Below are positions 5,113-51,000 of a stretch of DNA of 64,000 bases, piece by piece. The stretch's first letter is position 1; each line of letters begins with the position of its first letter. The translations under genes and the position numbers were made by a program. The notes under the pieces were generated by a model. It was not told the origin of the DNA. It ran no database searches and worked only from the letters and a program-made list of their open reading frames with translations. Source of the stretch: an uncultured Gammaproteobacteria bacterium (GTDB lineage: Bacteria > Patescibacteriota > Patescibacteriia > UBA9934 > CAZDDW01); the NCBI GenBank assembly GCA_965231015.1, contig OZ246408.1, forward strand, positions 620,115 to 684,114, given 5' to 3'.

Positions 5113-5156
5113 CGTTCTTCCCCGTGGTTCCCCCCGCGGGTTAACGTCGAAATAGC

Positions 5157-5185
5157 ACCTTAAACGAAAAATACGCATCTGTCAA
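5157..5185 (-). promoter_or_regulatory. Sigma70-like promoter TTGACA-17-TAAGGT driving cassette A
   Basis: On the minus strand, TTGACA is the reverse complement of 5180-5185, the spacer is exactly 17 nt, and TAAGGT is the reverse complement of 5157-5162. The ATG lies ~45 nt downstream. Confidence 0.35.
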
Positions 5186-15453: not shown

Positions 15454-15478
15454 AACGAGCTAGCAAGGCTCGTTTTCG
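15454..15478 (+). terminator. Intrinsic terminator after recR
   Basis: AACGAGC-TAGCAAG-GCTCGTT hairpin followed by TTTCG. Confidence 0.5.
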
Positions 15479-15479
15479 A

Positions 15480-15508
15480 TTGACACGACCTACTTTATTT
15501 GATAAGAA
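15480..15508 (+). promoter_or_regulatory. Consensus sigma70 promoter TTGACA-17-TAAGAA of GC-rich cassette C
   Basis: TTGACA at 15480-15485, an exact 17-nt spacer, and TAAGAA at 15503-15508. SD GAGGAGGAGG at 15510-15519 and ATG at 15525 follow. Confidence 0.5.
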
Positions 15509-15524
15509 CGAGGAGGAGGTGCCC

Positions 15525-15869
15525 ATGTCCGTCGAAGACAAGCTCCTGCCTGGACACTTGGCGATAATGCGAATGATCGAGATCACGGTTCGCAACTCGA
15601 CCAAGACGCCAAAGCCCAGCAAGCAAGATCTCGCCAAGACTCCTGCTGTGCTGAACGCTCTGTTCCAAACCCTTCTCATGTGCAACATCCCGAAGGACGA
15701 CCTGAAGATCGTGATCGGTCGAAGCCGTAACGCCATCAGCAACATGCGCCCCGAAGTCGACACCAAGAGACTGTTCAAAATTACCAAGGAACTTGAAGCG
15801 CGCTCGAGCATCCGGCACCGCACCAAGGAAATCATCCGTGGGACAATTAGCCGCATCACCGGAAGGTAA
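15525..15869 (+). CDS. Hypothetical protein (114 aa), cassette C gene 1
   Basis: ATG 5 nt after GAGGAGGAGG. The protein is MSVEDKLLPGHLAIMRMIEITVRNSTKTPKPSKQDL...; the region is GC-rich and no family was recognised. The track ORF 15480.. includes the untranslated promoter. Confidence 0.55.
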   Translation: MSVEDKLLPGHLAIMRMIEITVRNSTKTPKPSKQDLAKTPAVLNALFQTLLMCNIPKDDLKIVIGRSRNAISNMRPEVDTKRLFKITKELEARSSIRHRTKEIIRGTISRITGR

Positions 15870-17849: not shown

Positions 17850-17861
17850 ATGCTTGACATT

Positions 17862-17897
17862 TTACACAAAAACCAAAATCCCGTCACTTAGACGGGA
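17862..17897 (-). terminator. Intrinsic terminator after rplU
   Basis: Minus strand: UCCCGUC-UAAGU-GACGGGA followed by UUUUGGUUUUUGUG. Confidence 0.5.
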
Positions 17898-17902
17898 CCT
17901 TG

Positions 17903-18214
17903 TTATTTGATGGATTCAATCTGTACTTCAGTAAAAGGTTGTCGGTGTCCGGTTTTTTTACGATAACGTGACTTTGACTTATATTTGATAACATCAATCT
18001 TCTTAGCTTTACCTTCACCAAGAACTTTACCCTTAACCTTGACACCATTAACAGTAGGAGTTCCGACTTTGACGTCTTTACCCTTTTCATCAGCCACGAG
18101 TAAGGCATCAAATTCTACCGACTTACCCTCTTCAAGATTAAGTTTTTCAACCTTGATGGTATCGCCTTCTTTAACTTTATATTGTTTTCCACCAGTTTTA
18201 ATGACAGCAAACAT
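17903..18214 (-). CDS. rplU: 50S ribosomal protein L21
   Basis: 103 aa beginning MFAVIKTGGKQYKVKEGDTIKVEKL, the canonical bL21 start. Confidence 0.9.
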   Translation of the reverse strand: MFAVIKTGGKQYKVKEGDTIKVEKLNLEEGKSVEFDALLVADEKGKDVKVGTPTVNGVKVKGKVLGEGKAKKIDVIKYKSKSRYRKKTGHRQPFTEVQIESIK

Positions 18215-30493: not shown

Positions 30494-31375
30494 TTAGATG
30501 CGAGTAGCTGCGCGCAACTTGGCGCTGCGAGCCCGAGGGTTCGCCTCCATTTCCTCCTTAGTAGGTTTTATTACCTTCTTGTTTATTATTTCTAAATCCT
30601 TCCCGTGGTGATCTTTCATGAAATTCTTCACGATTCGATCTTCCAAGGAATGGAACGAGATGACCACAAGTTTCCCGCCCGGACGGATGGTGCCAAGCGC
30701 TTGCGGCAGTACAACCTCGAGCTCCTCTAATTCGTGGTTGACCGCTATGCGCAACGCCTGAAATACACGTGTTGCCGGATTGAGCCTATCGTGCTTTCCC
30801 CGCCTGGGGACAACGCCGGATATGATTTCGGCAAGAGCGGTTGTGGTTACAATCGGATCTTGCTGGCGCTTCTGCACAATTGCCGCGGCGATTTTGTGGG
30901 CATTTCGTTCCTCTCCTAGTTTTCTAAAGATCTCACTTAGTTTATCTTCCGACCAATTATTCACAATGTCAGAAGCTGACTCTTCTTGATCCGGGTTATA
31001 CCTCATGTCTAATGGGCCTTCAGTTTGAAACGAAAACCCTCGATCCGGATCATCTATATGAGGTGAAGAGAAACCCAGGTCCAGAACAACTCCGTCAACC
31101 TCACTAAATCCATTGTCATATATTACCTGCTTAATGTTTTTGTATGAGTCATGAGCCAATACGACTCGGTCCCCAAATTTGGCCAGATTCTTTTTGGCAA
31201 CCGCCAGATTACGAGAATCCTTATCTATGCCAAGCAGTCGACCATTTGGAGCTGAGCGCTCCAGGATAGCCGAGGCATGTCCTCCCAAACCAACTGTCCC
31301 GTCAATAAAATCTTGACCCGGCGCAGGATCAAGGAACCGAAGGGTTTCATTAAGTAGAGCCGGTATATGTGTCAT
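30494..31375 (-). CDS. rsmH: 16S rRNA (cytosine1402-N4)-methyltransferase RsmH (MraW)
   Basis: 293 aa: MTHIPALLNETLRFLDPAPGQDFIDGTVGLGGHASAIL...DLGFSS. Canonical RsmH. Confidence 0.9.
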   Translation of the reverse strand: MTHIPALLNETLRFLDPAPGQDFIDGTVGLGGHASAILERSAPNGRLLGIDKDSRNLAVAKKNLAKFGDRVVLAHDSYKNIKQVIYDNGFSEVDGVVLDLGFSSPHIDDPDRGFSFQTEGPLDMRYNPDQEESASDIVNNWSEDKLSEIFRKLGEERNAHKIAAAIVQKRQQDPIVTTTALAEIISGVVPRRGKHDRLNPATRVFQALRIAVNHELEELEVVLPQALGTIRPGGKLVVISFHSLEDRIVKNFMKDHHGKDLEIINKKVIKPTKEEMEANPRARSAKLRAATRI

Positions 31376-31803
31376 ACTCCAAGATCCCCCATTTGTTCGG
31401 CTAATTTTCCTGCGTCTTTTTCAGCGGAATCCTTAAACGAATTCCACTTTTCCTCATCCCAGATTTCAAGGCGATTAAAAAGTCCCGCTATTACTACATT
31501 CTTCCTCACGCTCGCATATTCACGTAAATACTCCGGAATTACCACGCGCCCTTGTTTGTCTAAGGATACTTCCATGGCTCCGGCTAGCATCAGCCGAGCA
31601 AACGCCCGAGAGCTAGCTTTTCCAAGTGGCAATTCAGTCAACTTGTGAGCCAACTTTTGCCACTCTGCCTTTGTGAATACGAAGAGCGAAGAGTCGAGGC
31701 CTCGCGTCACTACCGCCCCCTTTGCAAGGTCACCTCGACACTTCACAGGGATCGCCAGTCTATTTTTGTCGTCAATGGTGTGTTTATATTCACCAATGAA
31801 CAT
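31372..31803 (-). CDS. mraZ: Transcriptional regulator MraZ
   Basis: Start chosen at MFIGEYKHTIDDKNRLAIPVKCR, the canonical MraZ N-terminus with double DxxxR motifs. The track ORF extends 23 aa further upstream. Confidence 0.85.
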   Translation of the reverse strand: MFIGEYKHTIDDKNRLAIPVKCRGDLAKGAVVTRGLDSSLFVFTKAEWQKLAHKLTELPLGKASSRAFARLMLAGAMEVSLDKQGRVVIPEYLREYASVRKNVVIAGLFNRLEIWDEEKWNSFKDSAEKDAGKLAEQMGDLGV

Positions 31804-32019
31804 AGGGACGGTATTAGAGACTACTGAAATTCCTCCAACTGCTGCGTCATGGGGACCCGATAACTTCGTCAACGTACGTTTTAGTACGTTTCCTTGTTAC
31901 CACCCCATTCCTTGCATTTGGAGTTTTTCAGCAGTCTCCAAGATTAATGTTTATCCAGGGAAAGAGTTCATACAAAAAAGTGGGCAACAACCCGCGCAAA
32001 CGAAGGCTGAAATTCCCCA

Positions 32020-32210
32020 CTTCATTCCACTTCTGTACCCTTCATAACCATTTTATCCCACTTTTGAACACGGGTCAACCACTTTATCCTTTATACTTTT
32101 TTACTTTATTTTAGCTATTTTTTCTTGATTTATCCACTTTCTGGGGATAACCCACCTTCCCCACTTTCCAGAATTAACCTTGCAGGTTGCTTAAAATTAT
32201 CCACAACAAA
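32020..32210 (-). promoter_or_regulatory. Array of direct AAGTGG(G/A) repeats (putative MraZ boxes) in mraZ upstream region
   Basis: On the minus strand at least 7 AAGTGG(G/A) motifs occur in two clusters, several ~10 nt apart (AAGTGGAATGAAGTGGGG; AAGTGGGGAAGGTGGG). MraZ is known to bind GTGGG-type direct repeats upstream of its own gene. Confidence 0.45.
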
Positions 32211-32228
32211 AAGAAGCAGTCCGGTAGA

Positions 32229-32453
32229 CTACTTCGACTTTGACTCTTCGACAAGTCTCAAGAGCTCCTCTCGGATGATCCTGTCCTTGTCGTCAAGGTT
32301 TTCAGAGATACGATACGCAATGTTGGGATTCAACAATGGATCTTCATCGAACGCGAGAACAAACTCACATCCGAGATTCGGTCGAATCATTAGATATACC
32401 CCGCATCTTCGCAGGTATACCCGTCGCTGGTCCAATGTCCGCAGTTCGGACAC
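32229..32453 (-). CDS. Small ORF(s) of GC-rich cassette E, abutting uvrC stop; frame uncertain
   Basis: Track ORF of 74 aa with a GTG start directly after the uvrC TAA; an internal ATG would give a 53-aa MIRPNLGCEFVLAFDEDPLL... product. In the +1 frame an SD-led 24-aa peptide, MEGKCPNCGHWTSDGYTCEDAGYI, starts inside the last uvrC codons. Confidence 0.35.
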   Translation of the reverse strand: MSELRTLDQRRVYLRRCGVYLMIRPNLGCEFVLAFDEDPLLNPNIAYRISENLDDKDRIIREELLRLVEESKSK

Positions 32454-33818
32454 TTACCTTCCATTCTCTCCTCTCCTTTTTCTGGGTCTCTCTACCCCAG
32501 ATCTTTTTGACCTTACCACCTTATGATACCTCGCCGCAAATCGGTGGGCTTCATCACGGACTTTCTGAAACAGTTCTTTTTCGTTTTCTGCAACACGTTT
32601 TAGCTCGAGATTCGATTTATCGTAAACAAGTCGGTCTTGTTTACGGTCGAGCCCCTTAGCAATTCCTATCACAGGGATATCGAGTCCGAGCTCGTCGAGA
32701 ATCGAAACAACCCGATTCACTTGTCCCTTACCCCCATCAATCAACATGGTGTCCGGCAGCGGCCAGGCGTTTGGTTGTTTTTCTGCTCGAGCCAGCCGAC
32801 GACGGACCATTTCTTCAAGACTCGCGACATCGTTCGCGCCCTTTACAGTTTTAATCTTAAACTTTCGGTATTCACTCTTAGCCGGCTTCCCTCCTTCAAA
32901 CACCACCATTGATCCCACTGAACTGGTACCTGAAATATTTGAAATATCATACCCCTCAACCCGACCCATGGCGTTGATGTACGGCTCGTCGCGCGTCGCA
33001 TGTCGCGCGACGAAAATATCCGTATCGTCGCGCGTGATCAACGATACGTCTTGAATATGCTCCAGAGAAAAAATCTGACGTTTGAGTTCTTGTGCGCCTT
33101 CGTATCGGAGCTCGTTTGAAGCCTTTTTCATTTCCCGAACTAACTTTTTCTTTATCTGTTCTTTCTTGCCCTCAAAAAACAAAATCAAATTGCGAATAAT
33201 TTTTCGGTATTCGGTTTTCGAGATCTCACCCGTACAAACTCCGGGGCAACGCTTGATGTGATAATTAAAACAAGCTTTGGCTCGACCCGAAACATCCGGA
33301 TGGTCGCATGTTGACCACGGAATAACCTTACGCACGAGTTCAAGCGCGGTTCGCAATGACTGACCGCTGGTATACGGACCAAATACTCGTAAAAACTTCT
33401 GCTGGGCTTTCTTGGATAATTTTTCACTGAATGGTTTTACTCCCATCCTTTCAAGCTCAAGCCCGCGCATAAAAATCGGTTTCGGATAATCCTCGTTCGT
33501 GATAACCAAGTACAGGAAACTTTTATCGTCCCGAATCATGATGTTGTATGGCGGAAGATATTTTTTAATTTGATTCGCCTCGAGAACTAAAGCTTCAATC
33601 ACAGTCGGAGTTTCAATGTAATCAATTCGAGCAATCTCGGAAACGAGTTTAGCGATCCGGTCATCATGAGCCTTTGTGAAATACGAACCGACTCGTTTTT
33701 TAAGCGACGTAGCTTTCCCAATGTAGAGCACGTCACTTTGGTCATTGTAATAAAAATATACCCCGGGATTGTCGGGTAAAGCATCGTTTTTGATTTTAAT
33801 TCTGTCTGGAATAGCCAT
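32454..33818 (-). CDS. uvrC: Excinuclease ABC subunit C (short form)
   Basis: 454 aa with an N-terminal GIY-YIG domain (PGVYFYYNDQSDVLYIGKATSLKKRVGSYF), a Cys-rich motif and an RNase H-like endonuclease domain. No long C-terminal HhH region was seen. Confidence 0.85.
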   Translation of the reverse strand: MAIPDRIKIKNDALPDNPGVYFYYNDQSDVLYIGKATSLKKRVGSYFTKAHDDRIAKLVSEIARIDYIETPTVIEALVLEANQIKKYLPPYNIMIRDDKSFLYLVITNEDYPKPIFMRGLELERMGVKPFSEKLSKKAQQKFLRVFGPYTSGQSLRTALELVRKVIPWSTCDHPDVSGRAKACFNYHIKRCPGVCTGEISKTEYRKIIRNLILFFEGKKEQIKKKLVREMKKASNELRYEGAQELKRQIFSLEHIQDVSLITRDDTDIFVARHATRDEPYINAMGRVEGYDISNISGTSSVGSMVVFEGGKPAKSEYRKFKIKTVKGANDVASLEEMVRRRLARAEKQPNAWPLPDTMLIDGGKGQVNRVVSILDELGLDIPVIGIAKGLDRKQDRLVYDKSNLELKRVAENEKELFQKVRDEAHRFAARYHKVVRSKRSGVERPRKRRGENGR

Positions 33819-33857
33819 AATTTAAATTAGCTGTTATACTCGCGGCATGGAGAACGT

Positions 33858-34184
33858 ATGAGCCAAGACTATTGGAACGACATCGATGAGTATGGCCCAG
33901 AACAACTCGCACCTTCAGCCGCCACCAATCCCCTGCCTGGAATGACCTATATCTACTTTCGTGATGCCCCCAACTGGACACAGCCGGTTATGCCATTCAA
34001 CTACATAGACAATGGTCTTACCTCACAAGGCAATCTGTGTATCGCACCTGGTTGTGAGGCAGAATCTCGGGTCTATCCAGCGGCGCGTTTCATGCGTACT
34101 CACGAATTCAATCTGGTCTGCACGAGCTGTGGACAAAGATATTTCGATCGAACTTTGTTCACACGCTTCCCTCTCCTTCTTTGA
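33858..34184 (+). CDS. Hypothetical Cys-containing protein (108 aa), GC-rich cassette F
   Basis: SD GGAG at 33849-33852, a 5-nt spacer, and ATG at 33858. The protein is MSQDYWNDIDEYGPEQLAPSAATNPLPGMTYIYF...CIAPGC...CTSCGQRYF, with a possible zinc-ribbon CxxxGC...CxxC. Confidence 0.5.
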   Translation: MSQDYWNDIDEYGPEQLAPSAATNPLPGMTYIYFRDAPNWTQPVMPFNYIDNGLTSQGNLCIAPGCEAESRVYPAARFMRTHEFNLVCTSCGQRYFDRTLFTRFPLLL

Positions 34185-34212
34185 GCCCTCTCGGGCTCTT
34201 GTTTTTTTATTT
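34183..34212 (+). terminator. Intrinsic terminator of cassette F (overlaps uvrA 3' end)
   Basis: GAGCCC-TCTC-GGGCTC hairpin followed by TTGTTTTTTTATTT. The stop codon TGA is embedded in the stem. Confidence 0.7.
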
Positions 34213-36723
34213 GAAATATCGACGCAAATATTTCCCCGTATGTGACTTTGGGTTGCGCACAATCTCTTCTGGTGTTCCCGCGCCCACCACTTCTCCACCC
34301 CGATCGCCTCCGTCAGGGCCAAGATCGATAATCCAGTCGGCAGTTTTAATAATATCAAGATTGTGCTCAATAATGACGACCGTGTTTCCCTTGTCTACCA
34401 AAGCGTGTAATACCTCGAGCAACTGCTTTACGTCTTCAAAGTGAAGCCCCACGGTTGGCTCGTCGAGTAAATACAGGGTTTTACCGGTTGATCGTTTTGA
34501 GAGCTCGGACGCGAGTTTGACCCGTTGTGCCTCACCGCCGGACAAAGTTGGGGCTGGCTGGCCAAGCTTGAGGTACCCGAGTCCGACTTGGTTTAAGGTC
34601 TTGAGTCGATCCGCGATTGGTGGAATATCCTTAAAGAACTCGGCCCCGTCTTCAATGGTCATTTCTAATACATCATATATATTCTTGCCTTTATACTCGA
34701 CTTCGAGAGTCTCCCGATCAAACCGACGACCCTTACAAACCTCGCACTGCACATACACCGTGGGCAAAAAATGCATCTCAATCGCAATTGATCCGTGACC
34801 CTCACAGTTCTCGCACCGGCCTCCCGGCGTGTTGAAACTAAACCGACCAGGCTTGTATCCCCGATAACGGGCCTCTTCAGTTGAAGCAAACAGTTCCCTG
34901 ATCGGCCCCCAAGTCCCAGTGTAAGTTGCTGGGTTTGATCGTGGAGTTCGACCAATTGGTGCTTGGTTGATCATGATAGCTTTGTCAATGTACTCGGTTC
35001 CATGAATTGACTTGTGCTTGCCGGATTTTGGCTTGCTTCCGTAGAGTCGACGTGACAACTCGCGGTACATTATGTCATGGGTCAGAGTACTCTTCCCTGA
35101 ACCTGATACCCCGGTAATACAGATAAAGCGACGCAATGGAATCTCCACGTTGATATTCTTTAAATTGTTCTCTTGAGCCCCCTTGATCTTGATCGAATCT
35201 CGACCCGGAGCCCGTCGCACTTTCGGCATCGGGATCTTCTTGTCTCCTCGTAAATACGCTGCAGTCAAACTTTTCTTATCCTCAAACACTTCCGGTACAG
35301 TCCCGGCCGCAGTCACTTCTCCACCATGAACACCAGCCCCAGGCCCAATCTCAACCATATAATCAGCCGCTCGAATTGTATCCTCGTCATGCTCAACCAC
35401 AATAACCGAGTTTCCCAGATCTCTAAGACCAACCAATGTCTCCAGCAGCCGATCGTTGTCGCGCTGATGTAACCCAATCGTAGGCTCGTCGAGCACGTAT
35501 GTTGCACCCACAAGCCGTGAACCGATCTGACTGGCCAATCGAATTCGTTGTGCCTCACCACCAGACAGGGTTCCAGCCTTTCTATTCAAGGTCAGGTAGT
35601 GCAACCCAACGTCTAACATAAATTGAAGACGGCCCTGAATTTCTTTCATGACTGAGCCGGAAATCTCTTTTTGACGAGCTGATAATTTAAAAGTGTTGAA
35701 GTAATCTACCGCTCCCTCAATGGTCATATCAGTCACATCCACAATCGACTTATTCCCCGGCAACCATACATGCAAGGACTCAAGCTTAAGTCGGGCACCT
35801 TTACAAACCTTGCACTCTTCTTCAGAAAACAGTTCCTTTGTTCCCAGTCCGGTACAGGCTTCACAGGCACCATACGGAGAATTAAAGCTGAATAAACGTG
35901 GTTCTATTTCTGGAAAACTAAAACCACACTCCGGACAACTGAACTTGCTAGAAAGCATTCGTTCTGTTTTATCTGGGTAAATCACATTCACTACATCCTT
36001 TCCGTATTCAAGAGCGGTCTCAAGAGCCTCGGCTAATCGCTGTCGGTTATCTTTCTCGTTTATATCTTGAACTGGAACGGTATCAACGACAACCTCAATA
36101 GTGTGTTGCTTATACCGACCAAGTTTGATCTGCTCGGAAAGTAAATATTCTTTGCCGTCGATTCTAACCTTAGCAAAACCAGCACTATACAAATCATAAA
36201 GCAATTGGTAGTACTCTCCTTTTCGGCCACGAACCACTGGCGCAAGAATCATGACGGAGCCTGGCCGTTTACCTTTGGCTCTATTTTCTTTAGTTCCATC
36301 AATCACCACATTCACCATTTCTTCAACCGTCAACTTCTGAATCGGTTTCTTGCAGGTCACACAATGAGGTGTCCCGATGCGCGCAAACAAGACCCGTAAG
36401 TAATCATAAATCTCGGTGATCGTCGCCACAGTAGAACGCGGATTGGCCGAGTGGGCTTTTTGATCAATCGAAATGGCTGGGCTCAAACCTTCGATCTCAT
36501 CCACATCCGGTTTCTGCATCTGTCCCAAAAACTGTCGAGCGTAAGCTGAAAGCGACTCAACATAACGTCGTTGCCCTTCAGCAAAAATGGTATCAAAAGC
36601 CAGACTCGATTTTCCCGAGCCGGATAAACCAGTGACACACACTAACTGATTTCGCGGTAACTCAACGTTAATATTTTTTAAGTTATGCTCCCGTGCTCCT
36701 TTAATTTTTATCTCTTGTTCCAT
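34207..36723 (-). CDS. uvrA: Excinuclease ABC subunit A
   Basis: 838 aa with two ABC ATPase modules ([15 protein letters not shown]; [15 protein letters not shown]) and zinc-finger Cys motifs. Confidence 0.95.
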
Positions 36724-36783
36724 AATTGTTTTTCTGATAATCTAAAAAAGTTCTTTTCACACCCACACCACACTGGAGGATCG

Positions 36784-37365
36784 ATGTCATACCAGCTTCG
36801 CGAACAGATCCCCGGCCACGCTGTTGACAAGCATCTCCATTTTCTGTGGCCTAACCCGGTTGAAGATGACTCTCAGGGTGAGATATGGAGAATCTGGTCT
36901 GCAGTCTCGGAAAAGTCTCGGCCGCCGATTAAGCTCGATGACGGCGTCATGGTAGACATCGAGGACAGTGAGTTCGGTTCGGCCTGGCAAATCCTCGGTG
37001 GAGGCGGCATGGCTGCCACCCAGGTTGATGACTACTTCATCAATCCCTCACTCGACCTCGAGACCGAACGAACCAGACTCGAGAAGCTGGTCGAACAGCT
37101 TCGTGCCCAACGCTGGCGCCAGATGGACATCATGGACAGGGCCATGCATGACCCCGAGTACCGCGAGCGTCGTGCCTTCTTGGAGCGCCGAGAAGAGGTC
37201 GGTCAAGCCTTGACCAAGGCAAATGAAATCACGTCTCTGATTCGAACCGTGGCTATCTACTCACCCTCACAGCGCTCTGGCCTAATCCTGAAGCGGGCCC
37301 AGGTTTTTATCAAGAGCAACCACGACATCAAGTTCCCACCCATGCCAGAACAGCCTGAAAGCTAG
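36784..37365 (+). CDS. Hypothetical protein (193 aa), GC-rich cassette G gene 1 (paralogue of gene 2)
   Basis: SD GGAGGA at 36775-36780 and ATG at 36784. MSYQLREQIPGHAVDKHLHFLWPN...; the C-terminal half (ERTRLEKLVEQLRAQRW...DPEYRERRAF...IKSNHDIKF) parallels gene 2. Confidence 0.5.
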   Translation: MSYQLREQIPGHAVDKHLHFLWPNPVEDDSQGEIWRIWSAVSEKSRPPIKLDDGVMVDIEDSEFGSAWQILGGGGMAATQVDDYFINPSLDLETERTRLEKLVEQLRAQRWRQMDIMDRAMHDPEYRERRAFLERREEVGQALTKANEITSLIRTVAIYSPSQRSGLILKRAQVFIKSNHDIKFPPMPEQPES

Positions 37366-37371
37366 CCGGCA

Positions 37372-37959
37372 GTGAGTACAGATAGGCACGGGCTTCGAAC
37401 TGAAATCGACGGTGATCGAGTCGATGAACAATTAACAAGGTGGAACACAGACTGCTGGTTGTATTCTTGGAAAAAACCTAAACCCGATTGGGGTTTCTTG
37501 GAAGCCACATATAAACAGATCAAGCACGGTTGGGAAAAATACAGGGCTGGCAAGACTCAATATCGAGTCCACAGGACACAACTGAGTAATCCCGTCTTCC
37601 GCCTTCCAGAGGCCATCCGAAACAAGGTTTCGCCTCGAACTCTAGAATATGTAATCCGCCCTGCGCTTGATAACGCAACCGAACGTGCTGACCTGGAAGA
37701 CATGGTTCAGAAACTTCACGCAGAACGTTCCCACGGGATCGATCTTTTGCGGGAAGCCATTGAACACCCAGAATTCCGAGAAGATGAAGCTTACCGTCAT
37801 GCCCATACTCTGATCCAATTCTTAGTCAACCAAATCCATCATACCTCCACCATACTTGAGTACTTAACTCTTTGGACCCCGTCGGAATCTTCCCTTACCT
37901 TGTTGGAACAAGCAAGGCTATGGATCGAGGCTGGTTGTGATATCAAATTTGACAACTAA
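37372..37959 (+). CDS. Hypothetical protein (195 aa), cassette G gene 2 (tandem paralogue)
   Basis: GTG start 6 nt after the gene 1 stop. The segment ERADLEDMVQKLHAERSHGIDLLREAIEHPEFREDEAYRHA...IEAGCDIKF is colinear with gene 1. The stop TAA abuts the uvrB stop with no spacer. Confidence 0.5.
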   Translation: MSTDRHGLRTEIDGDRVDEQLTRWNTDCWLYSWKKPKPDWGFLEATYKQIKHGWEKYRAGKTQYRVHRTQLSNPVFRLPEAIRNKVSPRTLEYVIRPALDNATERADLEDMVQKLHAERSHGIDLLREAIEHPEFREDEAYRHAHTLIQFLVNQIHHTSTILEYLTLWTPSESSLTLLEQARLWIEAGCDIKFDN

Positions 37960-39978
37960 CTATTTCTTCTTCGGTGTGGGAGACTTCCGAAGTTCCTCTT
38001 TAAGGAGCTTGACCTCGTCGCGCAACAGGGCCGCCAGTTCGAACTGGAGTTCTCGCGCGGCGATTTTCATTTCTATTTCTTTTTGTTTTATCACTTGTTC
38101 CAAATCTTTCGGATCCGTAATCATTTCGATCTTCAATACGTCACGAATATCTCGGTCTTCCTCAATCCCAATCATCTCTCGAATATCTTTAATGTCTTTT
38201 TTAACCGTCTTTGGTGTAATCCCATATTTCTTGTTGAAAGCCAGTTGTTTCCTTCGCCGGCGATTAGTTTCTTTGATGGCCCGATTTAAGGAACCGGTCA
38301 TTTCGTCCGCATACAAAATGACTTTTCCACTCACATTACGAGCCGCCCGACCAATCGTTTGAATAAGCGAGGTTTCAGAACGCAAGAAGCCTTCTTTGTC
38401 TGCATCTAAGATTGCCACCAATGTCACCTCTGGCAAATCTAACCCTTCACGTAACAGGTTCACTCCAACCAAAACATCAAACTTTCCCTCTCTGAATTCA
38501 GACAACTTTCTAATTCGATCAAGCGTTTCGACTCCGGAATGCAAATACTCTGTTTTTATGCTTTGTGCAGCCAAAAATTCAGATAAGTCTTCGGCCATTT
38601 TCTTAGTCAAAGTGGTGACCAAAACCCGTTCTTTTCTCTTAACCCGTTTGGCAATTTCTCTCATTAAATCATCAACCTGACCTTCGTTATCTTCGCTGGG
38701 TGTAATCGGTCGAACAATAATTTCTGGATCCACAAGCCCAGTTGGTCGAATCACTTGCTCTACAACTTGAGTCGAATTCTCAAGTTCATAATCCCCAGGG
38801 GTAGCTGAAGTAAATACTACTTGTTGAATCCGTTTCTCAAACTCGTGAAACTTCAGAGGACGGTTGTCCCTGGCCGACGGAAGACGGAACCCGTGTTTGA
38901 TCAGATTGTCCTTACGAGCCCTGTCTCCGTTATACATGCCCCCGATCTGTGGCACAGTCACGTGCGACTCATCAATCACCAATAAAAAGTCATCGCCAAA
39001 ATAATCAATCAGGGTAAACGGAGGTTCACCCGGCACCCGGCCATCAAAATGGCGCGAATAGTTTTCGATTCCGTTGCAGTAACCAATATTACGAATCATT
39101 TCAAGGTCGTATCGAGTGCGACGCTTCAGTCGTTCATATTCGAGCACACTTCCCTGTTTCTCAAGTTCAGTTAAACGTTCTTTTAATTCAGCTTCAATTG
39201 CATCTGTGGCTCGCTTGATCTCAGCCTTGTTGGCCACAAAGTGTGAGGCTGGAAATAAAGTTACAGTGTCAACCGACTCAAGATCACGTCTGGTTACTGG
39301 ATCAAGAACCATAATCTCGGCCGGCCGATCATCTTCAAACCGAATTCGATACAATAACTCTTCATGCATCGGCATTATCTCCATTACGTCTCCACGAGCG
39401 CGAAAGTGACCGCGAGTTAAATCAGCCGTGGTTCGTTCAAACTGCATCTCAATCAACCGACGGATAATCTCATTTCGAGCTAAACCATCTTCACCTAATT
39501 TAATTTCGAGAACAATTCGCTCATACATGTCCGGAGAACCTAAACCGTAAATACAAGAAACCGAAGCCACAATTATTACATCTTTCCGAGTTCGCAAGGC
39601 CTGGGTGGCTTTGTGACGTAGACGGTCAATCTCATCATTAATATCTGCCTCCTTTTCAATATACGTATCCGTACGTGGCATGTAGGCTTCTGGTTGATAA
39701 TAATCGTAATAAGAGACAAAATACTCGACTACATTAGCTGGGAAAAATTCGCGAAACTCGTTACACAACTGCGCGGCCAAAGTCTTATTGTGAGCAATGA
39801 CCAAGGTTGGTTTGTTGACCTCTTTGATAACGTTAGCCATGGTAAAGGTCTTTCCTGATCCAGTAACCCCAAGCAAAGTCTGAAACTTCTCGTTTGACTT
39901 CAACCCTTTAACCAGTCCCTTGATTGCCTCCGGTTGATCTCCGGCTGGTTTAAATTTTGACTTTAATTTGAAACTCAT
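37960..39978 (-). CDS. uvrB: Excinuclease ABC subunit B
   Basis: 672 aa: ...LLGVTGSGKTFTMANVI... helicase motifs, a beta-hairpin region, and a C-terminal UvrB/UvrC interaction coiled coil. Confidence 0.95.
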   Translation of the reverse strand: MSFKLKSKFKPAGDQPEAIKGLVKGLKSNEKFQTLLGVTGSGKTFTMANVIKEVNKPTLVIAHNKTLAAQLCNEFREFFPANVVEYFVSYYDYYQPEAYMPRTDTYIEKEADINDEIDRLRHKATQALRTRKDVIIVASVSCIYGLGSPDMYERIVLEIKLGEDGLARNEIIRRLIEMQFERTTADLTRGHFRARGDVMEIMPMHEELLYRIRFEDDRPAEIMVLDPVTRRDLESVDTVTLFPASHFVANKAEIKRATDAIEAELKERLTELEKQGSVLEYERLKRRTRYDLEMIRNIGYCNGIENYSRHFDGRVPGEPPFTLIDYFGDDFLLVIDESHVTVPQIGGMYNGDRARKDNLIKHGFRLPSARDNRPLKFHEFEKRIQQVVFTSATPGDYELENSTQVVEQVIRPTGLVDPEIIVRPITPSEDNEGQVDDLMREIAKRVKRKERVLVTTLTKKMAEDLSEFLAAQSIKTEYLHSGVETLDRIRKLSEFREGKFDVLVGVNLLREGLDLPEVTLVAILDADKEGFLRSETSLIQTIGRAARNVSGKVILYADEMTGSLNRAIKETNRRRRKQLAFNKKYGITPKTVKKDIKDIREMIGIEEDRDIRDVLKIEMITDPKDLEQVIKQKEIEMKIAARELQFELAALLRDEVKLLKEELRKSPTPKKK

Positions 39979-42097: not shown

Positions 42098-45000
42098 TTA
42101 TTCTTCAATTAATGTATCAGACTCCTCAACCGGAGCTTCTTCAGGCTGGGCTGGCTCCTCTTCCACCACAGTTTCTTCCTGATCGGGATCAACATGTTGA
42201 GTCCCTACATCCTCTTCGACCTCTTCTTCGGTCATAGGCTCGTCATCTTCTACTTCTTCAACTACCTCCTCCTCTTCTTCTTCTCCTTCGGCTATCTCCT
42301 CATCAATTACTGGTTCTTCTTCAACCACCTCTTCCTCTTCTTCTACTGGTTCCTCTTCCTCCGGCTCTTCATCTATCTGTTCGTCCGGATCAACCATGCC
42401 TTCAACCGGATCATTTATATGACACTGGCCGTCCCAATAATAGTTTGTCAGCTGTTTGCACTCGTCCAGGGTATCACAGGCGTTCAAATTATCAACCCCA
42501 CACTCACCTTGATCAATAACCAGCTCAATTTCTTCAGTGGTTCCGTCTGAAATGAACAGCTTGGCATTATTTGAACCAAAAGCGTGCCAACTGAATTCAA
42601 CGCTCTCGCCATACATCTTATCTATCTCAATGTTAAATCCGGTTAAAGTTACATCTTTGATAATGTAGTCAATGTCCTCATGTAAATAGTTCATGAGAGT
42701 AGCAGTAACAATTGGTTGATATTGATACTCTTCCTCAAATTCAACCTGAACATTGGTCTCGTATTTCAGGATGCGAGCCAGACCAACCGTATCACCGTTA
42801 AAGGTAGTGTGTTTCTTTACCACCAAATTATCAACCTCGCCACTCATAACGAGAGTCGAACCACTTCCCTGTTCAACAGACTCAGTTTCTTGAATATCAT
42901 TCATACTATTTTGTATTGTCTCAATCACTCCCTGTTGATCCTGAATTGATTTCATCACAAGCGGAATAAAACTCTTATAATCCACCATCTTATACCCGTC
43001 CGAACGAGTGGTTACGGCAATTGGATAAATATCTTCAACCTGTTGAGCAATTACCCCGTGGTAGAATGTTTCATCATCGTCTGTAAAAGCTGATCTGTAT
43101 CGGAAATCCACAATCTCAACGGCCATTAAATCTTCAATGGAAAGTTCAGTAGCGGTGATATCCCGCTTCAAGCGCTCGTCTGACGGAGCTGTGGTATCAA
43201 TTGTATTTTGTCCAATGTAAAGAGTAGCTGAGCCTGTACCGTGGGTTTCGTCATCAATTAAATTATCCCCACTATCAACACCGATTGTCACACCAGAAGC
43301 TACCACTAATCCGCCGTTAGTTGGATCAGTGTCGCCAATACCAACGATTCCAGAACTAGATAAACGCATTACTTCTGAACCACTGGTTGAGAAGCCTAAA
43401 GTATCGGCCGAAATTCGGTACATTCCAGTGTTAGAGTCGTCGTTGAACCGGTATGATGGAGAACCAGCTGTTCCGTTTGCGTTAGCAAACGAACTGGCTC
43501 TAACTTGTCCAACAACCTGGAATTTAGTTGAAGGTGAGTCCGTACCAATTCCAACCCTCTCATTAGTAGTATCAATGTTCAAAATTGAAGTACCACCATC
43601 TGCATCTAAGAATTGGAAGCCGTTGGTTGAGTCAGTGCTATTTTGGAAAGTTAATAGATCATTAGTGGTATCGAAGGTTACTGCAGTTTCATCACCATCA
43701 GCCCCAATGTGTAAGGTGGCTGGGCCAAGATATAAATCCTGCCAACGAACTGTGCTTGAACCAAGGTCAAAGGTGTCATCTGCTGATGGAAGAAGGTCGT
43801 CACTTAATATAAAGGTTGTGGTATCGTGTCTTAAATATTCTGTTGTGGCATTGTTGTAATACAAGTACTCATCCAGGGTGATGTTACCATCAGCCTCAAT
43901 ATCATCGGCAACTAAAAGGTCGCTAGTCCCATCGATGTTGCTAGCCACACCACCTCCAACATCAAGCAGAGCCGCTGGACTGTCATCCCCAATTCCCACA
44001 TCTTCTAAAAAGTAGCTTTCCCCGGCTGAAACATAGAGGGCAAATCCACTACTTTGTGTATTTAGTTCCAATAAGTTTGCCGTGGCCGAAGAATTGGTGT
44101 CGCGGAAGCTGGCAAAAGCAGAAGCGGTCGCCGCTGTGCCTCGACGAGCATCAAATACGGAACCGGTACCATTATTGGTCAGGCTTATCATGTTAATGTT
44201 TGAATCTTGGTCAGCACTTAAAACACCCCCTGCGCCATTTTGATCAATCTCAATTGCGTTTCCGGTACCGTCATTTTGAATTTTCAAGACATCCTGATCT
44301 GAACCATCGTCTTCAGTAAATGATACTAGTGGTCCGTCAGCATCAACAGCCGCACGGCGTGAATACACATTCAAACCAATTCCCGGTGCATCGTTTCGAA
44401 CAAACAAAGCCCCGGATGAACTGGTGGCAAACCCAACATCACCAATTTGATCTATCAATAGCGCATTACCTGTACCATCATTGGTCAGATACATTACGTT
44501 TTGATCTGATGCACCATCCTCATAGAGCTCAAACAAGGCATCATCCGTGGTAGCTGCGTCTTCATTTCTGTATAAATAAAGTGCCCCGGCTCCGCCACCG
44601 GCCGTAACTCTTAAACTGGCGGCGTTATTGGTGCTAGCATCACCGATATGAGTAATCGACACAGCATAATTACTGGTGTCAGTTCCACGTACAGCCAACA
44701 TCTCAGAAGGACTATTGGTACCAATTCCCAAATATTTGTTTGTGTCGTCCCAGAAAAGGTTGGCATTATCTTCATCCAAATCCCCGGAAGCATCAGCAAA
44801 CATAACTGAACCGGTAGTAAAGCTAGAATCAAGAGAGCCGGACAAAGTTCCGTAAATTGTGCCATCGACTTCAAGGTCGTCGGCTACCAATAAGTCATCT
44901 GTTCCGTCGATGAAGTTAACAACTCCGCCACCGACATCTAACATGGCCGAAGGTGATGGATCTCCAATCCCAATATACCCCGTATTATCTGTGATCCTTA

Positions 45001-48000
45001 ACCTTTCCGTAGGTACCCCGACCCCATTATCTGTTGCAAAGCTGTGACGGGTGGTGGCATAGAAAGAGAAGTAACCATCTCCAAAGTCAGCGACACCATT
45101 ACTATCAGCTAAAATTTTAGTATTGTGAGCAGCATTTCCGATTTCAATATAATTTCCAACATTATCATACTGAATCGAACTAACGCTTGATCCTCCATCA
45201 TTAAAGTAGATCCAATCTGTTACTCGGATATCACCAGAGACATCAAGTTCAACCCCTGGTGTATTCGTCCCAATACCTAACCGATTATTGCCATCATCCC
45301 AGAATAAGTTGGTGTTATCTTGACTTAATAACCCGGAAGAACCGATAAACGGCATGGAGCCGGTAGTCATATCGGCAATGGATAACGTCTCACCGGTGTT
45401 TAATAACAGATCATCGCCCGGGTTGGTTGGTGATAAATCAGTTCCGGTCTTGGACCAATACGATGACCCTGCACCCAATGAGGCGGTATAAGTTCCAAGA
45501 GCGTTCAAAGCATGAACAATAGAGGTCGAGGTCTCACCGCCGGCACCAATTGTTGAACCAATAGATCCATCATCGGCAAAAATTTCCCCGGCATCATTTA
45601 ATAAATCGTCTCCAAGAGCAGAACCGGTCTGAGTAAAGTAAAGGCTTGGCTCTTGATTATCCCGGAAATGGATCAATCCTCCGCCACCAGATGAATCAGC
45701 GTTCAAAGTGATTAAAGCTCCGCCATTATTTACAGAATCAACTTCAAAATCAACTTCTGAATTACCATTTCCTGCCGTGGCGTGCACATAAAAACGAGCA
45801 TCACCGTTAGTTGACGGATTGTTGCTGATATTAAATTGAGCTATGGAGTCACCATTGGTATTCGTGTTTTGCAGATACACTTGGAAATCAGTGTCTCCGT
45901 TAGTGGAGTTAGAGGTTACCCCGCGATAAATACCTTGCACCTCATTTCCATCACCATTATCCTGAACTAAAAATTGAGCATACCGATTACCCGACATTAA
46001 CATGTCGTCTCCTGTGTGCATAGCCACTACTTGTGTATCAATTCCAATATCATCCGGGTCAATAAAGTTGAACAAACCAACCAGTCCGGTATTCCCTCCC
46101 AAACTTCCTTCGTTGGAATATGGATCAATGATTAAACCACCGGTTAAGGTTGTAAAGTCCACCCCGTCCCCTAGAACCGAATATCCTCCACCGGAATAAC
46201 TATTGTTCATGTAGGCGAGTCCGGATCCAAAATCAATGGCCGGCGGATTGTTGGTGACATCGTTTTGATTAATGGTCAAGGCGGCGTTATTGCTTGTATC
46301 CGGAACTGTAATTTCTACTGCCCCACTGTCCGCAGTGATTGATCGGCCGGCTCCGGCGCCGCCAGTGTCATATGACGCATCCAGAGTTCCGCCGCCGGCA
46401 CCGCCAAAATTCACCACGTAATTTCCCAAACTGTTCAGAGCATGCACAATAGACGTTGAGGTTTCACCACCTCCTCCTATGACTGAACCAAGCGTACCGG
46501 TTGAGCTAAAAATTTCCCCAGCACTATTCAACAAATCGTCTCCCAATGCCGAGTTATACTGCGTAAAATTCAGAGACTCGTTGTCATCCTCAAACTCAAT
46601 CCATGACCTTTGGTTTGGATCCAAGTCAGTGGTGGCCGATATAGTAATGTAGGCGTTTCCAACATATCCCACCCCTTCTTTGTCAGCCTCAATCCAGGTT
46701 TGAGCATCTCCACCGTCGTCGCTATTACGTGAACGTACATGGCTTACAGCATCACTAGAGCCACCGCCATCTGCAATTTCAGAATAAAATTGTGCCTCCA
46801 CATCGTTATCTGAACCAGCATTTTCTAAAGCGGCAATGGTGGCACTTCTGGTTGGCGTACCCGTAAAGAAGTTTTGATTAGAAGCATAAATGGCTGAACC
46901 TTGGGTTTCTCGACCGCTTGTGACCGCGCCGGTAAAATTATAGATTCCGGCTATCCCCATGTCACCGGCTGCAAAATAAGATTCATTGCCATAGGGATCA
47001 TAAATCAAACCACCGGTTGTGGTTCCCAAATCTGGTCCATCACTCATCATGAAAAAATTTGTGGTCAAATCAGCCTCAAGCACCTGCGGTCCGGTTCCGG
47101 AAAACTCGATCGAAGCTCCGCTGTCGGTGTTATTGGTGAGCTGTAAAACTGAAGATTCAACCGTGGTATCATTTTGAACGATTTCCAATCCAACATTACC
47201 AGAACCATCCGGTACAATGATTTGTACTTCATCAGAATCTGCCGTAATAATTCTTCCAGCCCCAGACCCACCGAAGTCATAAGCCATATCCAAAGTTCCA
47301 CCGGCTCCGGCACCAATGCCGGCGGCATATGTTCCGACCGCATTAATAGCGTGAATTAGCGAAAGTGAAGACTCGCTGAAACTTGATCCGATCGTACCGC
47401 TCGAAGAATAAATCTCACCAGGAGCGTTTAGTAAGTCTCCGCCCAGGGCAACACTATCTTGCGTCAAATACAAATTATTTTCTCTTTCATCAACAAAATA
47501 TACATCACCGTCCGGCGACAACAACTGAATTGTTGAAGTACCTCCGGCTGAAGCACTTAAAGTGATAGTTGAATCGTCGGCTATACTGTTATTTGCCTGA
47601 AGTAAAATAGTGGATTCACCGGACGTTCCGGTTGTTTTGCTTGCTCCGACTAAAAATTCTGCATCTCCGGTGTTCGTGGCACTAACCACGTTAAAAGTCA
47701 TGTCGCTGTCACCGGTTGCGGCTGATGTGGTGCGAGCATCAAAATCAATGGACACATCACCGGTTACATCGGTCTCGTTTAAAATAATTCTTGAGTAACG
47801 CGTGATAGTACCGCCGAAATCGTCATCACTATTATTCAAAACGATTTGTTGAGTAGGTACCCCGGCTGTAGCGGCACCAATAAAATTCATAATTCCGGAA
47901 AATCCCTCTGAACCACCAAGCGATGGGTCATTGCCGTACGGATCAATGAATAATCCTGAAGTTAGATCACTAAACTGGGCTCCGTTACCGACAATGCTCC

Positions 48001-51000
48001 AACCACTGGAAAGGTCGTTGGTAATAGCCGCGTAACCGGATCCGAAATCAATTCCACCCGGATAATTGGTCGTATCGTTTTGAGTGATTGATAAAGCGGC
48101 GGTGTTTGAGTTGTCAGGGACTGTAATTTGAACAGCCCCGCTGTCGGCTGTAATTAGTCGACCAGCTCCGGCACCGCCGAAATCATAGGCTTGATCAAGC
48201 GTTCCACCGGCTCCGGCTCCCAGACCGGCTGCATAAGTACCAACCGCGTTTAAAGCATGGACGAGTGAATCAGAGGTTTCACCAGAAACCGATCCGATCG
48301 TTCCGGTGGCTTCAAAAATTTCACCAGCGGCGTTTAATAAATCATCACCAAAGAAAGCACTGTCTTGGGTAAAAGCAAGGTCATCCCGCGTATCCGTAAA
48401 GCTGATAAAACCATCTCCGGTACCATTCAAAACCCGAGCCTGAATTGCTGTGTAAGCATTTCCGTTAGCGGCAACGTTATCAATATATGAACCAAGACTG
48501 GTGTAGGCATGGTGACCTAAATCTTCGTTTATAGATTTAATCTCTACAACTGCATCGTTATCTCCGGTTTCAGCTACCTCAGCGACTAATTGAGCCCGAA
48601 CGTCTTGTCCTCCTTCAGCATCAGTTTCCCAAAGGTATAAATACACAGAACGAGTTGGACTGTCGTTTGGAAAATCATTCATGGCTTGCATGAAAGACAA
48701 GGAACGATCTTGACTCGCCTCATCTGCTCCAATGTAATTTCCGAAACCGACGGCACCCTGATTCAAACCAGTATAAACTGGGTTGTTACCATATGGATCT
48801 ATCATGAATCCAGCATTTATATCTGCAACCGTAACATCGTCAGCTATAGCGATCCAATTACTGGTCAGGTCAGTTAAAAGCGAGTGTCCTCCAACACCGG
48901 TAAACTCAATCGCCGCCCCATCGCCGGCATTACTGATCGTTAAAGCTGACGGGTCATTTGTAGCATCATTTTGAGTAATGGTAAGCACGGAATGATTGGA
49001 ATTGTTCGGGGTAATGAATTGGATCGTTCCCGAGTCAGCCGTAATGGTTCTACCGTTACCGGCACCACCAAAGTCGTAAGCCTGATCCAGTGTACCACCG
49101 CCGCCGGCACCAATTCCGGCCGCATAAGACCCAACCGCATTCAGGGCATGTACTAAAGAATCGGATGTTTCACCAACACCTATTGAAGACCCAATGGTTC
49201 CAGTACTACTGAAGACCTCTCCCGGAGCATTTAACAAGTCATCACCCAAGCTAGAGCCGTATTGAGTGAAGGTCAGCTGGTCATTTTCGTCACGGAATGA
49301 AATCCATGAATCCATGGTGCCAGTATCATCAACCGCGGCTTCTAACTCAATATATGCATCTCCACTATTTCCGGCTCCACGTTTGTGAGCCTCAATGTGT
49401 ACGACCGAATCTCCACCATTATCTTCATGACTTGATTCTAAAACAGCTTCGGCGTCATCTGTGCCACCACCCGGTTCAATCTGAGCCAATGATCTGACTT
49501 CGACATTTCCATCTTCATCTGTTTCAAAAGCACCCACAACAGCCCAACGAGTTGGCGAACCGGTCAGATGGTTTGCGTTACCGGAATAATTAACTGATCC
49601 GGCTAAATTATTTCCGGCTGTTGCCGCTCCAACATAGTTATAATAACCGACCACCCCGTAACCAACCGCTGAAAAGGCCGGACTTACTCCGTAAGGATCA
49701 GCCAATAAACCGCCTGTTGACGTGGTGCCCATGTCGTTGGAGTCTCCCATAACATAATAATTGGAGGTAATATCTTCAAAAGTGGTTGAATAAACACTGG
49801 ATCCGGAAAAATGCAGACCAGATGCTCCGGAAGCATTGTTGGTAATCTGAACAGCCGGGTCAGTAGCCGCGGTATTGTTGTGCGTGGCTAAAAGACTGCT
49901 TCCTTGACTGTAGTTCCTAATCTTTAGTGCCGCGTCAGTAAAATCTTTTCCGTGTGTCACCTCTAAGGCACGCTCAGCCATAGGATTTCCAAAAGTCACA
50001 CTGCCTTCTAAAACATCCGCACTGACCGATTCAGCCGGAAATCCAGGATTACCTCCAATCACGGTTTGAACCGTTGCCACTGTTCCACTAGGATCAAGAG
50101 AAACGAGCTGGTACATACCATCATGAGCCGCTGAGCCAGACACCAAAAATGTTGTGGAAGCTGATTCTGTAATATTTAAACTGCGAAGATTAGTTGAAAA
50201 AGTGATTGTGTTTCCTGATAAAGTTACTGCCTCTGTCAATAATTCATAAGAACTGGTCAAACCAAGAGTTCTTTCATTTCCCATAATTGTCACACCGAAA
50301 GCAAATTCACCAACTGCTGGTTCAGAATTCACAACCAAGGTTGCAGGAAAATCAGTAAAGGTCGTCGTTCCAAGTCCAGAATTCAATTTTAGTAAAGAGT
50401 CACTAAAAGTAGCTGTTTCTGCTTGTCCGGCATCACTAATGTACACCGGCCCGCTGTCAGCTATAATGCTTCGCCCGACACCGGCACCTCCGGTATCATA
50501 TGACTGATCAAGCGTGCCGCCACCGCCACCTAACGAATCTACATATTCCTTATCAACCAAAGATCGGTTTGTGTAGTTTGATGAATAATCAGCTGCATAA
50601 ACAGCTCCTTCAAAACCAACTACATCACTGGTAATCGATATGTTTTCCGGAGAAACATCAAGACTGGTACTTGTAAGATTATTATCATCACTTCTTTCAA
50701 AAGACAGGTCATTTGTTCGCATCCAAGTATTCATGATTTCACCCGTAGCAGAATTCTCAGCCGTGTAGAAAACTCCTCCTGAATCCTGATTCAGTTCGCT
50801 AAAATAAATACCCGTGTTCATTGATTGAATCCATTCATCCTCCCCAATCTCTACCATCATTCCCGTATTCTCAATAATAAAATAATTTCCGTTCAAATCA
50901 AACGTACGATCTTCAGAAAGAGAACCGTCGGAATTGAAGATATTAATACTTGCATTATCTACATATTCCTTATCAACCAAAGATCGGTTTGTGTAGTCAG

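Follow-up and report, generated by a model that had tools for sequence, protein, structure and literature searches.

Organization of the uvr locus and its opposite-strand genes

Here, we have analysed the uvrB-uvrA-uvrC locus in a 64-kb stretch of contig OZ246408.1 (the window, meaning the whole stretch at its full length), together with the small genes that lie between the uvr genes, in particular G1 and G2, two tandem genes of one protein family (G) at the uvrB|uvrA junction. The uvr genes are consecutive on the minus strand, with mraZ, rsmH and ftsL downstream, and three genes, G1, G2 and F, are found amid them on the plus strand. The nearest matches of the window UvrB are Candidatus Uhrbacteria entries; the clade consists of Uhrbacteria-like Patescibacteria, members of the candidate phyla radiation (CPR), and the genome is of ~1 Mb. 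The relatives used for comparison are labelled REL (the closest one; merged contigs L001/L002, supported by L012 and L013), L003-L011 and L096-L098. The genes and the control region at the locus are as follows, with GC3 denoting the GC content at third codon positions.

37960-39978, minus strand: uvrB, 672 aa; Pfam UvrB_inter (PF17757), Helicase_C (PF00271), UvrB (PF12344) and UVR (PF02151)
37372-37959, plus strand: G2, 195 aa; GTG start; GC 0.471, GC3 0.46; without the acidic/GGGG loop
36784-37365, plus strand: G1, 193 aa; ATG at 36784, ribosome-binding site GGAGG at 36775-36779; GC 0.558, GC3 0.66
36724-36783: divergent control region, 60 nt between the starts of uvrA and G1
34207-36723, minus strand: uvrA, 838 aa; Pfam UvrA_inter (PF17760) and ABC_tran (PF00005)
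33858-34184, plus strand: F, 108 aa, acidic; ribosome-binding site GGAGA; Cys-x4-Cys...Cys-x2-Cys
32454-33818, minus strand: uvrC, 454 aa; GIY-YIG, UVR and RNase H-like domains; TIGR00194 at 380 bits, above its cutoff

The start of G1 is the ATG at 36784, corrected from 36685. At the other end of the cassette, the hexamer TAACTA (37957-37962) is, as an earlier note on this DNA had described it, the G2 stop TAA (37957-37959) directly adjoining the uvrB stop CTA (37960-37962).

The family was found in six lineages. In five of them (window, REL, L008, L009 and L011) it lies on the opposite strand amid the uvrA start and the uvrB end. REL has the same layout as the window, rsmH-mraZ-uvrC-F-uvrA-G1-G2-uvrB-nadM, and its G2 orthologue at the same site is 93% identical. 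L008, L011 and L009 each carry one G1-type gene in this position, with a GC content of 0.56-0.58 vs 0.44-0.48 in the flanks. The duplication into G1 and G2 is found only in the window and REL lineages.

The junctions of the block are variable slots

The earlier note had regarded the colinear arrangement of uvrB, uvrA and uvrC as uncommon. We found that the order uvrB-uvrA-uvrC(-mraZ) is conserved within the Uhrbacteria-like clade and recurs across phyla. Among the matches listed for 56 diverse genomes with enough downstream sequence, a sample biased to the UvrB proteins most similar to that of the window, uvrA is downstream of uvrB in 36 and all three genes are colinear in 15. Since the order is kept in relatives and is common in this sample, the colinearity is not unusual. 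Among lineages with at least 70% identical UvrB, the uvrB|uvrA junction itself exists in four states:

Empty: L005 and L007, the genes overlapping by 4 nt or lying 2 nt apart
G family: window, REL, L008, L009 and L011
Unrelated 84-aa family, opposite strand: L004/L003 and L096/L097
DUF6998 gene and 89-aa GIY-YIG gene, same strand as the uvr genes: L098, 7932-8657 (UvrB 71% identical to that of the window)

The 84-aa open reading frames (ORFs) of L004/L003 and L096/L097 are mutually homologous (BLASTP E=4e-17) and share the motif RQCGFWG-x-P-x-EPPD-x-x-IVPRH, and their C-termini finish with AA; the gene is called in one of the four contigs, and GC3 is 0.69. The spacers that hold them (L004:3313-3799 and L096:2208-2713) are ~500 bp long, with a GC content of 0.54-0.57. 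We considered whether decayed G genes make up the spacers of L004 (486 nt) and L096 (505 nt) and rejected this: a six-frame hmmsearch returned nothing, and the shared 84-aa ORF was found instead.

The uvrA|uvrC junction has three states. It is occupied by F in the window and REL, it holds nothing in L003 (60 bp) and L096 (112 bp), and in L005 (14565-16289) it contains four opposite-strand genes that encode proteins of 102 aa and 145 aa, a VKOR and a cupredoxin. L005, whose UvrB is 71% identical, also carries an opposite-strand gene of 158 aa in its uvrC|mraZ gap (17662-18138). For G, F, the 84-aa family and the L005 genes, the cargo is thus opposite in strand to the uvr genes, and the exception is L098, whose cargo shares their strand. 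Genes in the spacers of other CPR orders and of other phyla mostly lie on the same strand or have no clear strand bias, and their GC content is not elevated.

Occupancy is nested by UvrB identity: G is found at 78% or above, the 84-aa family at 73-76% and the other states at 71% or below. Such nesting fits single old acquisitions followed by descent, with recombination in addition for G. The earlier note had offered an insertion hotspot as one of its alternatives, and the synteny comparison supports this well, in that conserved flanks enclose differing cargo or no cargo at both junctions, and horizontal exchange at the slot is seen in the synonymous divergence and in the discordance of L008 described below. 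Its other proposal, that selfish or anti-repair elements had repeatedly targeted the locus, is not shown by these data: there is no mobility signature, occupancy is nested, F is vertical and the segment called E is unsupported as a gene.

A tract of recent exchange covers G1, G2 and the end of uvrB

The window and REL differ by ~20% in DNA over 13 kb, vs only 1-7% over 36750-38100. Mismatch density switches at 36762/36805 and again at ~38085-38103, so that the tract of low divergence, from ~36763 to ~38100, comprises both G genes and ~47 codons at the end of uvrB (37960-~38100). Synonymous (dS) and nonsynonymous (dN) divergence between the window and REL were estimated by the Nei-Gojobori method. 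Within the tract, dS is 0.127 for G1, 0.119 for G2 and 0.185 for the last 47 codons of uvrB. Elsewhere in the comparison it is 0.36 for mraZ, 0.71 for rsmH, 0.75 for ftsL, 1.03 for F, 1.16 for the first 50 codons of uvrA, 1.54 for the whole of uvrB, 1.68 for uvrC and 2.07 for the whole of uvrA; in nadM and in the 100 uvrB codons before the tail, synonymous sites are saturated.

The contrast is also seen within uvrB, where the window and REL differ at 0.09 of third positions in the last 47 codons vs 0.45 over the preceding 153 codons. We considered whether the tail of uvrB is conserved as a general constraint and rejected this. Third-position divergence of the tail is lowered only among the window, REL and L008 (0.09-0.28 vs 0.45-0.52), and pairs with more distant lineages have no such reduction; its confinement to the three closest lineages points to recombination. 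L008 is informative in a further respect. Its UvrA and UvrB segments are 93.1% and 94.4% identical in amino acids to those of the window (89.2% and 92.7% for REL), yet its G gene is a single copy only 45% identical in protein (~57% in DNA) to that of the window. As the flanks are this close and G is this divergent, nucleotide-level selection cannot explain the identity between the window and REL. Our results indicate that the G1-G2 cassette, along with the tail of uvrB, was recently transferred by recombination between the lineages of the window and REL, and the distribution of tail divergence suggests that exchange with breakpoints at the uvrB|uvrA junction may have occurred repeatedly.

At the G boundaries, a search for terminal inverted repeats and att-type direct repeats found only short repeats at chance level. 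A 24-nt direct repeat of 83% identity (36699-36722 and 38079-38102, spaced by 1380 nt, a multiple of 3) consists of native codons, the first eight of uvrA (MEQEIKIK) and a stretch of uvrB (LEQVIKQK). On the right, the tract of low divergence ends where the second copy lies; the repeat could be a chance product of AT-rich coding sequence.

A second patch of low divergence between the window and REL was observed at 31350-32100 (mraZ and upstream sequence), with 87-95% DNA identity, which suggests either that several recombination tracts form a mosaic or that regulatory constraint is strong.

G1 and G2 belong to a rare orphan protein family

That G1 and G2 are tandem paralogues, as the earlier note had proposed from their colinear C-terminal halves, was established by a significant pairwise alignment (BLASTP E=1e-17, with 30% identity in a C-terminal stretch of 102 aa); the N-terminal parts can be aligned too. 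Searches of large collections found very few relatives. When 1.84 billion cluster representatives were searched in full with a HMMER profile, five clusters were obtained, and a profile search of the 5.8-billion set gave a sixth; the family thus amounts to six clusters at 50% identity among about 15 billion proteins. P0122, P0123, P0124, P0125 and P0126 are members of it. Profile scans of genome contigs returned nothing, those of metagenomes returned only L008 again, and viral scans found no relatives. G1 and G2 have no match in Pfam, NCBIfam or PHROG, and matches in the anti-phage defence collection PADLOC were at noise level (E 0.013-0.039). When eight family members were scanned at E<=1, there was no consistent match and no nuclease domain. 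A PDB sequence profile search gave coiled-coil noise only, and fold comparison of the predicted structure gave no match, to a nuclease or otherwise. G is a previously undescribed, very rare and clade-restricted orphan family of ~190-aa proteins.

The AlphaFold2 model of G1 has a pLDDT of 78.8 and a pTM of 0.74 with eight sequences; with three sequences the pLDDT was 47. G1 is predicted to be a soluble helical bundle, the model having a small alpha/beta part at the N-terminus, an acidic loop that is disordered and ends in GGGGMAA, and a bundle of long helices. The invariant residues of the family sit in two turn motifs, DPE(Y/F)RE and Y(S/T)PSxRS. The proteins are hydrophilic, mostly mildly acidic and without a membrane segment.

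G1, G2 and F are real genes under purifying selection. Between the window and REL, dN/dS is 0.12 for G1 and 0.26 for G2, and with F inside the same range (0.12-0.26) all three are functional genes. In the earlier note, each spacer was said to hold a GC-rich cassette. This holds for G1 only: GC is 0.558 in G1, 0.471 in G2, 0.498 in F and 0.484 in E, against a window mean of 0.447 (sd 0.043), so that G2 is host-like, F marginal and E unremarkable. The highest GC content of any 300-nt interval in the 64 kb (0.60) falls inside G1, and the GC3 of G1 (0.66) stands above the 0.37-0.50 of host genes, in which range G2 (0.46) also lies. G1-type genes of four lineages hold a GC3 of 0.65-0.67 despite protein identities of 25-54%. 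None of the explanations that we considered fits this sustained high GC3 beside a host-like G2 well.

Other GC-elevated ORFs without a Pfam match were observed in the window, namely two downstream of recR (15428-15859 on the minus strand and 15480-15869 on the plus strand, GC3 0.67-0.71) and one of 356 aa at 4108-5178 (GC 0.53). It may be that these, too, are orphan cargo of the G1 kind.

The uvrA-G1 control region

The 60 nt between the starts of uvrA and G1 contain a near-symmetric -10-like element, TGATAATCT (~36741-36749), which is conserved, and the region also keeps a CA-rich leader and a Shine-Dalgarno sequence. In five aligned lineages the spacer between uvrA and G measures 60, 60, 60, 56 and 44 nt, with the motif TTTGATAAYCT. 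We regard the -10-like element as a putative promoter.

The uvr proteins, F, E and neighbouring sequence

Coordinates and strand of the three uvr genes were borne out with complete Pfam/NCBIfam support. The window UvrB combines the helicase core with the UvrB-interaction, UvrB and UVR domains, and its UvrA has the tandem ABC ATPase and the UvrB-interaction domain. In Pfam at E<=1e-8, no match to the UvrA insertion/DNA-binding domain is listed for the window UvrA, and in Pfam/NCBIfam the C-terminal (HhH)2 domain (HhH, helix-hairpin-helix) is absent from the window UvrC, which stops at residue 454. The UvrC proteins of relatives are also of 440-460 aa. Because the UvrC and UvrA lengths of relatives are similar, the shortened UvrC and UvrA look like a clade-wide reduced UvrABC set. 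Genetic code 25 was considered for the window and rejected, since long ORFs are intact under table 11.

F and the sequence after uvrC are accompanied by two further features:

34183-34208, plus strand: intrinsic terminator of F, GAGCCCTCTCGGGCTC followed by a T-run
32206-32488, minus strand: window-specific indel of ~230 nt, containing the E ORF (32229-32453) and a terminator-like hairpin (32235-32213)

Outside the window lineage, F is found in REL alone. The REL orthologue is 79.6% identical, at the same site and without indels, and all four Cys are conserved; the Cys4 pattern suggests a zinc-ribbon-like protein. Searches of Pfam, NCBIfam, PHROG, PADLOC, PDB and viral sequences gave no match to F. 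Mismatches by codon position are 18/11/43, and dN/dS is 0.13. Since its divergence is like that of its flanks, F is vertically inherited. The hairpin of its terminator spans 34183-34198 and the T-run reaches the uvrA stop (34207-34209), confirming the reported overlap with the 3' end of uvrA. F is a real, vertically inherited gene for a small Cys4 protein, with a terminator of its own. The earlier note would have given up its idea of inserted cassettes if relatives carried the same genes as vertically inherited partners with native GC; this is what we found for F, and not for G1.

E, which had been put forward as a GC-rich cassette gene, is the first in-frame ORF directly after the uvrC TAA. 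No homologue of E was found, Pfam, NCBIfam, PHROG and PADLOC gave no match to it, and the public collection has no gene call for it. In the alignment with REL, 184 of its 225 columns are gaps. We find no support for E as a gene and treat it here as non-coding 3' sequence of uvrC. We also rejected E as a remnant of the UvrC HhH domain or a read-through extension, as there is no HhH signal, uvrC ends in a TAA stop and REL lacks the segment.

Beyond uvrB, the window contains a giant ORF of 3566 aa (42098-52798, minus strand) that is built of repeated modules rich in Gly, Thr and Asp and has an acidic tail at the C-terminus, as is typical for surface proteins of CPR bacteria; the homologous region of REL is among the most diverged, at 67-83% DNA identity.

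Discussion

Taken together, we think it probable that uvrB-uvrA-uvrC-mraZ is a conserved block whose junctions act as permissive, recombination-prone slots for small lineage-specific accessory genes. The block would have been inherited, with slot cargo placed mostly on the opposite strand. G would go back to a single acquisition, by the ancestor of those lineages that have at least 78% UvrB identity; it would have split an ancestral operon in which uvrB and uvrA overlapped, and would otherwise have evolved fast. As no integrase, transposase, nuclease or meaningful terminal repeats were found, the cassette would move as a flank-anchored allele by homologous recombination, plausibly following natural transformation, without mobility machinery of its own. 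Natural competence with flank-directed homologous recombination has been shown in Saccharibacteria, which are also Patescibacteria (PMC10633639). Once in place, the symmetric -10-like element may act as a promoter both ways, for G1 and for uvrA. Transcription of G would meet uvrB head-on with no terminator between, which could give mutual interference.

Several observations weigh against this interpretation. Synonymous divergence is uneven over the 13-kb comparison, mraZ being at 0.36, and recombination is therefore not unique to G. The family is known from just six lineages, mostly on short contigs, and in one of these, a 934-bp contig (L010), the G member is convergent with nadM instead of uvrB, the contig showing this side only. 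The promoter assignment is made from sequence, and a consensus scan found no canonical -35/-10 pair in 36724-36783. The maintained high GC3 of G1-type genes would be left unexplained if G were a passive passenger of a hotspot. Moreover, the strict positional conservation of G in a streamlined genome fits a functional link to nucleotide excision repair (NER) equally well.

Such a link is the substance of one alternative, that G is a dedicated accessory or regulator of NER or the damage response, which shares a bidirectional promoter with uvrA and might bind UvrA, UvrB or DNA, with G1 and G2 as a heterodimer that arose from a homodimer of the ancestral protein. In its favour, five of six lineages, at UvrB identities of 78-95%, have G in one position and orientation beside uvrA, the 60-nt divergent control region is conserved, the G genes are under purifying selection, and motifs with invariant Arg, Glu and Ser (DPEYRER, Y[ST]PSxRS) are placed at helix turns; compact CPR genomes also tend toward keeping functionally linked neighbours. 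Close relatives that lack G, or have unrelated cargo there, nevertheless keep an intact uvrBAC, neither a DNA-binding or known repair domain nor a fold match is detectable in G, and G evolves roughly ten times faster than UvrA and UvrB. We consider a dedicated NER partner rather unlikely on this balance. If a role has to be named for G, our best guess, and a tentative one, is that it serves as an accessory factor linked either to the expression of uvrA or to the response to damage. A more exotic version seems distinctly doubtful, namely that G is an NER-linked protein of a kind not seen before, either a modulator of UvrA or UvrB specific to the clade or a nuclease-less selfish cassette copied into genomes without it by way of the conserved ends of the repair genes and perhaps by repair activity, the high GC3 and the convergence with uvrB being part of the mechanism.

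G could instead be a selfish site-specific element, homing- or addiction-like, that targets or defends the uvrB|uvrA junction and co-converts the 3' end of uvrB. This would account for the patchy distribution of G, for the sharp-edged exchange tract that takes in the adjacent uvrB tail and for the deviating composition of G1, and a free-standing GIY-YIG gene is among the alternative occupants (L098). We judge it improbable: G carries no nuclease, integrase, transposase, toxin or antitoxin signature and no notable terminal repeats (the 24-nt repeat being native uvrA and uvrB codons), a classical addiction module of two genes is ruled out by the single-gene versions, the occupied sites are nested in line with host phylogeny, the high GC3 has been kept over deep divergence, unlike a recent foreign signature, and no viral relatives were found. 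Strictly vertical inheritance, with the low dS produced by nucleotide-level selection on RNA structure, antisense function or codons, draws on the GC3 that G1-type genes keep across lineages and on the antisense position of G on the uvrB-uvrA axis, where RNA-level constraints are conceivable. It is very unlikely given that G2 has a host-like GC3 and an equally low dS, that L008 combines equally close flanks with a divergent G, and that the low-dS tract covers the uvrB tail in the three closest lineages only. Least credible is that the plus-strand ORFs are annotation artefacts in non-coding spacers. That description holds for E only, with its indel, its lack of homologues and its absence from gene calls; for G1, G2 and F it is already refuted by third-position-biased substitutions and dN/dS, and for G also by homologues that keep the conserved motifs down to 25% identity and by a G1 model that is confident with eight sequences.

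The locus is, in our reading, an ordinary gene-insertion hotspot with a curious occupant, and an anti-repair role is unsupported. By itself the locus reveals no new repair or anti-repair mechanism. If the slot interpretation is correct, it illustrates compactly, for Patescibacteria, how slots hold accessory genes and how flank-anchored alleles are exchanged; in the ~1-Mb genomes of these organisms, horizontal exchange and natural competence are just beginning to be documented. It also brings to light a new, extremely rare protein family whose sole known address is the uvrB|uvrA junction, and that address poses a simple question: is G in contact with excision repair?

Comparison with known systems

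In Escherichia coli, the small gene ssb is divergent from uvrA across a short shared control region. The likeness to G1 and uvrA is positional only, as G is predicted to be a helical bundle and not an OB-fold single-stranded DNA-binding protein, and no LexA-box-like operator was identified. Free-standing homing endonuclease genes occupy slots between conserved genes in T4-like phages. The patchy occupancy of the slot is alike, and the exchange tract that includes a flank resembles co-conversion; G differs in its chromosomal CPR context and in having none of the GIY-YIG, HNH, LAGLIDADG, PD-(D/E)XK and EDxHD domains among the eight members scanned. Polymorphic toxin systems include tandem arrays of fast-evolving helical immunity-type proteins, and G is likewise small, soluble, helical, fast-evolving, tandem, horizontally exchanged and narrowly distributed. 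It is unlike them in occupying a single fixed junction, with no toxin gene or known Imm/SUKH signature nearby. Neither does G resemble a type II toxin-antitoxin pair, since G1 and G2 are paralogues of each other, three lineages have a single copy and no toxin-antitoxin family was matched.

The arrangement of the uvr genes themselves is that of the uvrBA operon of Bacillus subtilis and other Firmicutes, where uvrA directly follows uvrB on the same strand. The gap between the two genes is 20 nt in B. subtilis (L029), and in empty-site CPR relatives they overlap; here, 1.2 kb of opposite-strand genes interrupt the pair, and uvrC follows colinearly.

Hotspots of chromosomal integration and recombination between conserved core genes are known from comparative genomics of horizontal gene transfer in bacteria. 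The slots described here differ from them in lying inside a DNA-repair block of a ~1-Mb CPR genome and in holding one or two small genes, with no tRNA targets and no integrase, transposase or recombinase among G1, G2, F and E (Pfam, NCBIfam, PHROG); G is in addition a long-term resident with a sustained high GC3. What they have in common with the core-gene hotspots is constant flanks, differing small orphan or accessory cargo, and exchange tracts that are bounded by the flanks.

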